NCBI GenBank assembly: GCA_965207885.1
Contig: OZ242311.1
Location: 5,952,001 to 6,016,000, forward strand
Length of the DNA stretch: 64,000 bases
Source of the DNA: Candidatus Latescibacterota bacterium
GTDB lineage: Bacteria; Latescibacterota; UBA2968
Direction of reading: 5' to 3'
The notes below the pieces were generated by a model. It saw nothing but the letters and a program-made list of their open reading frames with translations. It had not been told where the DNA came from and ran no database searches. A program made the position numbers and the translations under genes. Below, piece by piece: positions 46,423 to 47,934 of this stretch (within the stretch, counting starts at the first letter, position 1; every line of letters begins with the position of its first letter).

Positions 46423-46722
46423 GTGTCAACTATTTTGATCGCATATCTGTTTACAGCACTCGTTTTTGGATTTTTTCTCTATTATTTTGTTTGGCGAAAT
46501 CGCTATGTGACGCAGATTCGCCTATCTGTTTACAAAGTTGAAGGGCGGGTTGTGAGTATTGAGCGCGTGGTGAGGGATATTCAGGTGAATGAACATCAGG
46601 ATCTGCTGGCATTAAAACGCATTGAGTGGAAGGTTATTTACAAAGACCGGGATGACAATCTCTGCGAGACCCGTTGCCGCGTTGAAGGAGGACAACTCGA
46701 CTGGTATCCTCCATTGAGCTGA
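46423..46722 (+). CDS. Hypothetical single-pass membrane protein
   Basis: SD GAAAGG, GTG start, N-terminal TM helix. Confidence 0.6.
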   Translation: MSTILIAYLFTALVFGFFLYYFVWRNRYVTQIRLSVYKVEGRVVSIERVVRDIQVNEHQDLLALKRIEWKVIYKDRDDNLCETRCRVEGGQLDWYPPLS

Positions 46723-46725
46723 TTA

Positions 46726-46950
46726 TCACACCTTTTCCGCGATGGAGACGGTGTTCTGATCTTTTTCCGCTTTTTTGCGCCGTGGGCATGTAAAGCACGC
46801 GGAGTCTTCGTCCAAATCCTGTTCAGAGGTTTCCAGGACATCGCCACAACAACTCTGCTGCTTTTTTTTGTACTGCGCAAATGTCAACGCACCTGCCATA
46901 AACGCAAATGCTATGATGAGAAAGATCGTCGCTGTCAATATGGTTTCCAT
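46726..46950 (-). CDS. nqrM: NqrM-like Na+-NQR maturation protein
   Basis: One TM helix followed by SCCG...CFTC; same strand as and downstream of apbE/nqr. Confidence 0.6.
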   Translation of the reverse strand: METILTATIFLIIAFAFMAGALTFAQYKKKQQSCCGDVLETSEQDLDEDSACFTCPRRKKAEKDQNTVSIAEKV

Positions 46951-46976
46951 GTTGTTGTCCCTAATGGAAATTGCGC

Positions 46977-47005
46977 TTGAAAGCGGAAGGTGGGATGGCT
47001 ATACT
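46977..47005 (+). promoter_or_regulatory. Probable native promoter of the TA operon
   Basis: TTGAAA-N17-TATACT directly before the element insertion site. Confidence 0.65.
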
Positions 47006-47008
47006 TAT

Positions 47009-47300
47009 CTGATAGTCCGTAAAACCCACAGCCTTCAGGCGTGGGATAATAAGGGCATAAATTTGTAGCTTTAGCGTATAGACACATTGACATACCACCC
47101 TTGTGTGAGTATCATACCATCAGGTATGGCGTTCTACACGAAACATCCCCCCTGTGTAGGTAAAACCTGAAGGTCAGCCCTATTTGGCTGCTTTTACCCA
47201 GTGAACAAGCTACACAGAATTGCCCATGGGTCCAGGACGATGTACCCAGGCGGGGTCAATCGCCAAGAAGCCCAACACGTTCACGGTTGGGAGTCGTCAC
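47009..47300 (+). mobile_element. Non-autonomous IS200/IS605-family element (PATE/MITE) without tnpA/tnpB
   Basis: Left hairpin cccacagcc-ttca-ggcgtggg (47025-47045) preceded by AAAA and upstream TTAT; right hairpin cccaacacg-ttca-cggttggg (47271-47291) preceded by GAAG and ending TCAC. Confidence 0.8.
47087..47115 (+). promoter_or_regulatory. Element-internal sigma70 promoter
   Basis: TTGACA-N17-TATCAT. Confidence 0.7.
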
Positions 47301-47316
47301 GTGTGTTCTACGCTAA
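47122..47316 (+). ncRNA. Candidate omegaRNA (TnpB guide RNA) scaffold plus flanking guide
   Basis: Nested stems ctgtgtag/ctacacag, ggtaaaa/ttttacc, cagcc/ggctg, tgggt/accca, tggcg/cgcca, ending at the IS right end TCAC. Confidence 0.5.
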
Positions 47317-47338
47317 AAGCATTAGAAAGGAATGAAAA

Positions 47339-47569
47339 ATGAAATTTCAACGTATCACTATTTCTGCCGACCAAATGGGGGGATTGCCCTGTATAAGGGG
47401 TCTCCGTATCCCCGTTTCTGTCATTGTTGATCTCGTCGCTGCAAACACATCTGATGAGGAAATTTTGAGGCTCTATCCCGATCTTGAACCCGAAGACATA
47501 CGCGAAGCACTCGCCTATGCAGCGGTCGCAGTGCGTGAACGAGAACTTCCTCTTCAGATGACACCATGA
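47339..47569 (+). CDS. DUF433 antitoxin (VapB45-like)
   Basis: [36 protein letters not shown]. Confidence 0.92.
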
Positions 47570-47934
47570 GATTTCTGGTTGATAATGCGCTTTCGCCATT
47601 GCTGGCTCAAAGGCTCGTTGAAGAGGGATACGATACTGTACACATTCGCGAATATAACATGCAATCTGCATCCGATGAAGATATTTTTCGACTTGCTCAA
47701 AGAGAGGATAGGATCATCATTTCGGCTGACACTGACTTTGGCACATTACTCGCATTGAGAACTGCTATCAAACCATCTGTAATCCTTTTTCGAAGAGGTA
47801 CAGAGAGGCATCCAGAGCAACAATTTAAACTTTTACAGGCCAATCTACCGACTATTTCCAATGATCTTCAAGATGGTAGCATTGTTGTTTTTACTCAAAA
47901 TAGCATACGGATCAGGCCTCTTCCCATTGTATAA
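47566..47934 (+). CDS. DUF5615 PIN-like toxin (VapC45-like)
   Basis: [26 protein letters not shown]; ATGA overlap with the antitoxin. Confidence 0.9.

Follow-up and report, generated by a model that had tools for sequence, protein, structure and literature searches.

IS200/IS605 elements and their RNAs have been described in several forms that bear on the locus reported here. In IS608, the cleavage tetramers are read by 4-nucleotide (nt) guides 5' of the hairpin feet, TTAC being paired with AAAG on the left, and the left cleavage site lies outside the element and the right one, TCAA, inside it (passages of PMC3201880). In the omegaRNA of ISDra2, nucleotides -5 to -3 pair with -103 to -105 in the stem 1 region, and this pseudoknot stacks on stem 1 (passages of PMC10097598). 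Palindrome-associated non-autonomous IS200/IS605 elements, termed PATEs, were noted in Geobacillus stearothermophilus by Meers et al. (passages of PMC10055086), and standalone mobilised omegaRNAs without an effector or transposase, in genomes that have effector loci, are reported to be functional in trans together with compatible effectors (passages of PMC10691335, citing the 2021 OMEGA paper). In a stretch of 64,000 nt from a Candidatus Latescibacterota bacterium (assembly GCA_965207885.1, contig OZ242311.1, positions 5,952,001 to 6,016,000 of the forward strand), which we call the window and number from its first letter, positions 47009-47300 are a real non-autonomous IS200/IS605 element of PATE type, inserted precisely 3' of a TTAT tetramer.

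We consider it probable that this mini-element is a transposon without tnpB whose self-promoted omegaRNA is used in trans by a resident TnpB to cut the vacated site again. A non-autonomous derivative would have lost tnpB and kept the left end, a tnpB-type promoter, a 179-nt scaffold, and the right end. Transcription would start at about 47122 and run through the right end into the flank, and a resident TnpB, which we call family 1, would bind the RNA in trans. Excision by the Y1 transposase TnpA would leave a scarless joint of TTAT and flank, the TnpB complex would cut this joint with flank nucleotides 47301-47316 as guide, and recombination with a sister copy would then restore the element, as in the homing model of Meers et al. 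The parts of the element are the following.

47009-47300, + strand: the whole non-autonomous IS200/IS605 (PATE-type) element, 292 bp, from its ends, its copies elsewhere, and an empty site
47005-47008, + strand: TTAT target and cleavage tetramer, predicted to be also the transposon-adjacent motif (TAM) for a TnpB guided by the element RNA; precedes 9 of 9 copies that retain the left end, and is present in the empty site
47021-47045, + strand: left-end guide tetramer AAAA (47021-47024) and imperfect hairpin CCCAC..GTGGG (47025-47045), homologous to full-length family-1 left ends
47087-47115, + strand: sigma-70-like promoter TTGACA-17-TATCAT, matching 11 of 12 consensus positions and homologous to the tnpB promoter of full-length relatives
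47122-47300, + strand: omegaRNA-like scaffold of 179 nt, predicted start 47122, from the conserved core and its covariation
47267-47300, + strand: right end, with GAAG (47267-47270), hairpin CCCAAC..GUUGGG (47271-47291), and a tail to TCAC (47297-47300)
47301-47316, + strand: flank as predicted 16-nt guide, placed by its position and unique in the genome

The boundaries can be read from an empty site. In contigs X15 and X16, which come from RNA libraries and represent a related strain with about 5% differences, 47008 is joined straight to the homologue of 47301 onward, so that TTAT is followed by the right flank without target duplication. The element 3' terminus after the right hairpin reads AGTCGTCAC, and in every copy the flanks diverge right after TCAC, where conservation and pairing stop. 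No open reading frame (ORF) of at least 60 aa lies inside the element, and only frames of 40-52 aa overlap it, running off its ends. Both hairpins are homologous to the ends of full-length tnpB elements. A left-end motif scan of the genome that carries the window gave 26 matches, 14 of which lacked left-end context and were set aside as chance; TTAT stands before 11 of 11 left ends that have the AAAA guide and left-end context, and the sole AAAG left end is preceded by TTAC (1 of 1). Right ends of the element's family combine GAAG with TCAC, and those of another resident family combine GAAT or CAAT with TCAA. The right guide of IS608 is GAAT. These results bear out an earlier note, made from the letters of the window, which had proposed a protein-free 292-bp IS200/IS605 mini-element with both TnpA hairpins (47025-47045 and 47271-47291), no ORF, and the IS608-type rule of guide and cleavage tetramers (AAAA with TTAT, GAAG with TCAC). 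Its further proposal, a scaffold that abuts the right end and uses the 3' flank as guide, agrees with the stop of conservation at TCAC and with flanks that are unrelated between copies; a scaffold that stops at the right end would leave the flank to act as guide.

The RNA scaffold was analyzed by comparing copies of the element from related genomes. Its helices, all on the + strand, are listed here.

47133-47160, + strand: hairpin P1 (47133-47139 with 47154-47160) of the 5' domain, 7 pairs, 4 changed on both sides
47175-47190, + strand: hairpin P2 (47175-47179 with 47186-47190), 6 pairs, 3 changed on both sides
47201-47206, + strand: 5' strand GUGAAC of the long-range pairing PK2, whose partner GUUCAC (47279-47284) lies in the right-hairpin loop, 6 pairs, 100% paired, 2 changed on both sides
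47227-47248, + strand: hairpin P3 (47227-47231 with 47244-47248) with loop GACGAU (47236-47241), from covariation
47249-47264, + strand: hairpin P4, GGCGG..UCGCC, homologous to GGCGG..CCGCC in full-length elements

A second long-range pairing, PK1, connects the P3 loop GACGAU with the tail sequence GUCGUC (47293-47298), after which only the final AC follows. Its 6 pairs are formed in 10 of 10 copies, with one pair changed on both sides (G:C to U:A), and in two divergent copies the strands are GGCUAC/GUAGUC. PK2 is also paired in 10 of 10 copies, the two divergent ones having CUGGAG or CUGAAG with CUUCAG. With P1 to P4 and the right hairpin chosen by a screen for helices that change yet stay paired, 98.5% of the cells in eight aligned copies are paired and 10 of 41 pairs have changed on both sides, a number reached in 0 of 500 shuffles (mean 4.5). 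A covariance model retrieved two divergent copies (129 and 98 bits), and their addition gives a 10-copy set, aligned to fit the nested helices and not the two long-range pairings, in which 98.5% of the cells are again paired and 15 of 41 pairs have changed on both sides, also with 0 of 500 shuffles reaching it (mean 8.3). Controls with slid partners gave 1-3 such pairs for the 10 copies and 0-2 for the eight. Substitutions inside the element track base pairs, and, judging from this covariation, the RNA fold is under selection. The densely paired region of about 180 nt that had been proposed to end at the right end is real and corresponds to this 179-nt scaffold. The pseudoknot proposed with it, between GTGA(AC) at 47201 and the terminal TCAC, has to be replaced: GUGAAC pairs with GUUCAC in the right-hairpin loop, and the tail pairs with GACGAU in the P3 loop.

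An RNAalifold consensus from the first alignment was discarded; some of its helices fail in at least one copy (e.g., 2-7 with 23-29), and it uses the right-hairpin region differently. Single-sequence folds were only weakly better than shuffles (the window copy had a z of -2.1, the sister copy one of -1.0) and were left out of the evidence. An Rfam scan of 46500-47800 gave no match up to an E value of 10, which likely reflects a missing curated family for this lineage.

The genome that carries the window gives 24 matches to the TnpB TNB domain and contains one Y1 TnpA (PF01797 at 125 bits), whose action on the element ends is predicted. Family-1 TnpB is present there in about 11 full-length copies of 374 aa, including a subfamily at 75% identity. 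The family-1 right ends are homologous to the last ~50 nt of the mini-element, and some of the left ends are homologous to its left end through the tnpB promoter. Because the homology extends this far, the internal promoter of the mini-element is the tnpB promoter, now standing directly before the RNA. The promoter occupies the same position in the left ends of full-length tnpB elements and is kept in 7 of 8 aligned copies; the near-consensus internal promoter named in the earlier note is confirmed. The TnpB P0001 matches ISDra2 TnpB (8bf8/8h1j) over the full length with an E value of 6e-51, and it keeps the RuvC residues D, E, and D and four zinc-finger cysteines; in ISDra2 TnpB, these RuvC residues are D191, E278, and D361 (passages of PMC10097598). 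Six of 7 aligned resident TnpB representatives, including both of family 1, keep D, E, and D. Family-1 TnpB was found in 19 of 21 genomes of the genus and in 10 of 10 genomes that bear the scaffold. A related tnpB, which had been anticipated, is thus at hand in each of these 10 genomes. A TnpB of a further family, at C1:224474-224832 of the same genome, has glycine at the position of the RuvC-II glutamate (..ILGDL..) and only a 254-aa frame, and from these features it may be inactive or rearranged.

The mini-element and its full-length parents share one order of parts at the 3' end: the hairpin whose loop forms the pseudoknot comes first, and then follow the GGCGG hairpin, AAGAAG, the right hairpin, and the tail. 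This match in order covers the 3' ~75-80 nt of the mini-element. A covariance model of the scaffold, R1, gives 30-44 bits with full-length tnpB elements at their 3' ends, in the last ~110 nt only. The loop and tail of the full-length elements occur as GGCUAC/GUAGUC, GAUUAC/GUAAUC, and GACGAC/GUCGUC, i.e., as three compensating variants of PK1, in an alignment made from 25 distinct ends and reduced to 23 rows, L022 and L032, whose upstream parts are rearranged, having been removed ahead of the helix screen. The best parents by R1 belong to the GUCGUC subfamily, which was found in two other species (G019 and G006). On the strength of the hairpin order and the tail-to-loop pseudoknot, the 3' module of the mini-element is the core of a TnpB omegaRNA. 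Of the interior, the 3' ~75-110 nt are homologous to the omegaRNA of such parents, and the 5' ~100 nt have no counterpart in the full-length elements searched.

We investigated the distribution of the core by BLAST in 61 genomes, including the one with the window. Any match was confined to 17 of the 61; these 17 all belong to the genus of the genome with the window, beyond which 0 of 40 genomes matched. Full-length or near-full-length matches, with 81-93% identity, were found once in each of 7 other species and as a second copy in the genome of the window, and two further divergent copies of the scaffold have no recognisable left end. The 9 copies with a left end occupy 6 different sites, one of them common to four species, and contigs from RNA libraries show three additional distinct flanks after the core. 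Judging from these sites, the element is mobile across the genus. A DNA-pattern scan of genome contigs gave 7 loci, 7 of 7 in metagenome-assembled genomes of Candidatus Latescibacterota or Latescibacteria, and most of the runs that contain the stretch are labelled sponge metagenomes. A similar pattern scan of metagenome contigs for the P1-P2 region gave a single locus, which was rejected as a chance match in coding-like DNA without the other features. The earlier note had seen in each insertion a new guide of a dispersed array. This idea is not borne out: there are 2 copies in the genome of the window, one of them without the left hairpin, and 1 in each of the 9 other genomes with the scaffold.

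The sister copy (L026, C1:5582419-5582600) lies between a methylisocitrate-lyase-like gene and an EF-G-like gene. Its left hairpin is deleted, a TTGACG-17-TATATT site and an intact scaffold (220 bits) remain, and its core is 97.2% identical to that of the copy in G017. At the site common to four species (L012-L015), the elements of G005, G012, and G006 resemble each other at 96.9-98.6%, and their 300-nt flanks are 90-93% alike, except for the right flanks of G005 and G012 (98.7%). The G017 element at this site is 82-85% like the other three. This pattern would be explained if one copy had replaced another or if the copies had undergone gene conversion. At two sites (L012, L014, L015, and L026), a long convergent ORF on the opposite strand stops in the last bases of the element, where TCA gives TGA; in the empty site, the stop of the same ORFs would be TAA, the reverse complement of TTAT, reading ..A TAA. 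The insertion thus swaps one stop codon for another, and at these two sites the gene is left whole.

Smaller remains were also observed. In the genome of the window, the counterpart of the G010 insertion site (C1:1654673-1654720), which precedes a thiamine-riboswitch-like leader and a thiC-like gene, retains only a left-end deletion remnant of ~38 nt. The copies in G004 are truncated. Two single-hairpin elements of ~50 nt (C1:886369-886413 on the + strand and about 5438590-5438640 on the - strand) combine the 5' side of the left end (TTAT and then a CCGTAAAACCC motif) with the 3' side of the right end (GGGAGTAGTCAC) and have no RNA module. Another resident family has left a deletion derivative of ~240 bp at C1:4549260-4549510, with TTAC, an AAAG-guide left end, and a right end finishing in GTCAA; its interior consists of the last tnpB codons (DLNAAINIH.. 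region) followed by the omegaRNA region.

The element might be an inert relic, a decaying deletion derivative that is moved by TnpA and whose functionless interior looks conserved through recent spread. The low copy number would fit, as would the decayed copies, that is, the remnant at the G010-occupied site, the sister copy without its left hairpin, and the truncated copies in G004; the ~50-nt single-hairpin elements indicate in addition that mobility by TnpA needs no interior. However, copies that are 81-93% alike and sit at different sites in different species nevertheless have 98.5% of their cells paired, with 15 of 41 pairs changed on both sides. The promoter is kept in 7 of 8 copies, and at the shared site, the similarity among three elements exceeds that among most of their flanks. 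We regard the relic as quite unlikely for these reasons.

The 5' ~100 nt of the scaffold comprise P1, P2, and a linker with GUGAAC. This part has no BLAST match in the genome of the window except the sister copy. A tnpB-bearing parent with the same 5' domain was found neither by BLAST in the 61 relatives, nor with R1 in 31 genomes of the family, nor with a model of the 5' domain, R2, in 132 genomes of the class. R2 hit 12 places in 10 of the 132 genomes, corresponding to 11 known copies and one further locus. In a chimeric mini-element (L078/L079, G006:C1:1144699-1145019), a leader made up of the promoter TTGACA-17-TATCCT and a hairpin resembling P1 (37 bits to R2) is fused to the last ~160 nt of the gene of a different TnpB family and to the right end of that family (..GGGAGCACGTCGAT), which is also the right end of the TnpB family at C1:224474-224832 in the genome of the window. 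This single locus suggests that promoter and P1 together may form a movable leader module. The extra 5' domain, which includes P1, P2, and the strand that pairs with the right-hairpin loop, probably makes the RNA more stable or aids its folding outside a tnpB mRNA.

Such a domain could also serve the RNA at the expense of others. If the element were a parasite of TnpB, its self-promoted RNA, 5' domain included, would be in competition for TnpB with the omegaRNAs of the full-length elements and gain retention at their cost; with its own promoter, it would not need processing of tnpB mRNA, its 5' domain covaries and is absent from the parents, and the leader of promoter and P1 has once been fused to the omegaRNA of a different TnpB family. 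However, the chimeric case is a single locus, and this proposal refines the re-cutting of the vacated site rather than offering a true alternative to it. We give it a low probability. Somewhat less doubtful, and still unlikely in our view, is that the mini-element has evolved into a free-standing guide-RNA gene, with a minimal TnpB core, a new and selected 5' domain, and a portable leader, which exploits a TnpB that it does not encode. If this were true, such a gene could persist after immobilisation, as in the sister copy, and it would mark a natural stage on the way to guides encoded separately, as they are in CRISPR systems.

RNA libraries provide a hint, and only a hint, of expression. Contigs from the libraries of three studies contain the core. 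The 306-nt contig X17 has its first base exactly at 47122, spans 47122-47300, where it shows 5 differences, and extends a further 127 nt past the right end into a different flank; X15 includes 58 nt upstream. The depth of these libraries cannot rank expression, and uncovered parts such as 47074-47107 are not evidence of absence.

Several observations weigh against re-cutting by a resident TnpB. The 5' ~100 nt are without counterpart in any full-length element searched, and for this reason the remainder is the only part of the RNA that is demonstrably omegaRNA. The window copy is of the GUCGUC type, and the full-length right ends in its own genome are GUAGUC or GUAAUC, none of them GUCGUC. The copy number is low at 1-2 per genome, with 2 in the genome of the window and 1 in each of the other 9 with the scaffold. 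A role in retention is useless to the sister copy, which has lost its left hairpin and cannot be excised. As for the RNA, the contigs may derive from DNA carry-over, one of them including the promoter region, and an assembly that broke off where variants diverge could account for the start of X17 at 47122. The changes on both sides of PK1 and PK2 come from the two divergent copies and may represent a single event, each change perhaps being one event because these two copies are related.

In the host genome, the element lies in an intergenic stretch between a minus-strand 74-aa ORF (46726-46950) and a DUF433 gene (47339-47569). Two features of this neighbourhood are of interest.

46977-47005, + strand: promoter-like site TTGAAA-17-TATACT just left of the insertion, by consensus match only
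47339-47934, + strand: gene pair of DUF433 (47339-47569) and DUF5615/PIN-like (47566-47934), downstream of the element, whose promoter reads toward the pair

The insertion thus stands directly after TTGAAA-17-TATACT; the DUF433/PIN-like pair follows 39 nt downstream, and the interval contains no terminator-like site. The site at 46977-47005 is possibly the native promoter of the downstream operon, and the element promoter may now drive or alter this operon. The right flank resembles the start of the RNA (GTTCTACACGAAA versus GTTCTACGCTAAA) and also the reverse complement of a left-end segment; the stretches concerned are 47066-47087, 47131-47143, and 47301-47318. These similarities (repeats D1 and I6) are absent from the other copies and were treated as probably due to chance.

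This position would fit a takeover by the host, in which the RNA guides a nuclease-dead repressor of the TldR type or the element acts as a movable outward promoter. The window copy reads toward the DUF433/PIN-like pair from close by and follows a promoter-like site, the copy in G010 reads toward the thiC leader, the immobilised sister copy has an intact scaffold, and one site is common to 4 species. However, other copies are directed at a convergent gene from its 3' end, so that delivery of a promoter is not a general role. The catalytic residues are retained in family-1 TnpB, and only one unrelated resident family is without the glutamate. Moreover, when up to 3 mismatches are allowed, neither the guide of the window copy nor that of the sister copy has a second match next to TTAT in the genome, a result that fits a self-directed guide and speaks against a regulatory target. 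The TldR that the earlier note had offered as an alternative partner to TnpB accordingly loses its footing on both counts, and takeover by the host appears very improbable.

Re-cutting of the vacated site by a resident TnpB is thus the preferred reading. The locus is a clean natural case of a transposon that carries only a guide RNA, with exact boundaries, an empty site in a related strain, a fold backed by covariation, and an uncultured bacterial host. It shows that the promoter and RNA of such elements are kept by selection while species diverge. The published view of omegaRNA and TnpB as separable modules gains support from this, and the ~75-80-nt core, the two covarying long-range pairings, and the 5' domain offer testable variants for work on TnpB guide RNAs.

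The ends compare closely with those of IS608. As in the passages of PMC3201880, the hairpins are subterminal and imperfect, the guides are 4 nt long, and the left site lies outside and the right site inside the element; here, TTAT goes with AAAA. The spacings differ slightly. On the left, 16 nt separate TTAT from the hairpin foot, where the TTAC of IS608 lies 19 nt 5' of the foot, and on the right, there are 9 nt from the foot to the end of the cleavage tetramer, where IS608 has its TCAA 10 nt 3' of the foot (passages of PMC3201880).

The RNA compares with that of ISDra2, as far as the passages of PMC10097598 describe it. In both, the TnpB is closely related (E 6e-51), the scaffold ends at the right end, nucleotides just before the guide pair with the loop of an upstream stem, and the right hairpin adjoins the guide. 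Unlike in ISDra2, the core measures ~75-80 nt from P3 to the end, versus 116 nt, and the TAM is TTAT, versus TTGAT. A pairing of the PK2 type between linker and right-hairpin loop, which is present here, is not described for ISDra2 in those passages, and the 5' region of the ISDra2 omegaRNA is dispensable and is removed, whereas the 5' domain here covaries.

The idea of a mini-element consisting only of a guide RNA has already been published (PMC10055086 and PMC10691335), and no new kind of system is opened by this locus. Like the standalone omegaRNAs in the passages of PMC10691335, it is a mobilised omegaRNA locus without effector or transposase in a genome with effector-bearing loci; unlike them, it is low in copy number and kept across the species of one genus, and its function in trans is a prediction. 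With the PATEs, as they appear in passages of PMC10055086, it shares the lack of a protein gene, both TnpA hairpins, insertion at a fixed tetranucleotide, and an omegaRNA that would need a TnpB encoded elsewhere. It differs from them in its host lineage, here Candidatus Latescibacterota from sponge metagenomes, and set beside those passages it has a promoter fused to the RNA and a covarying 5' domain of ~100 nt.

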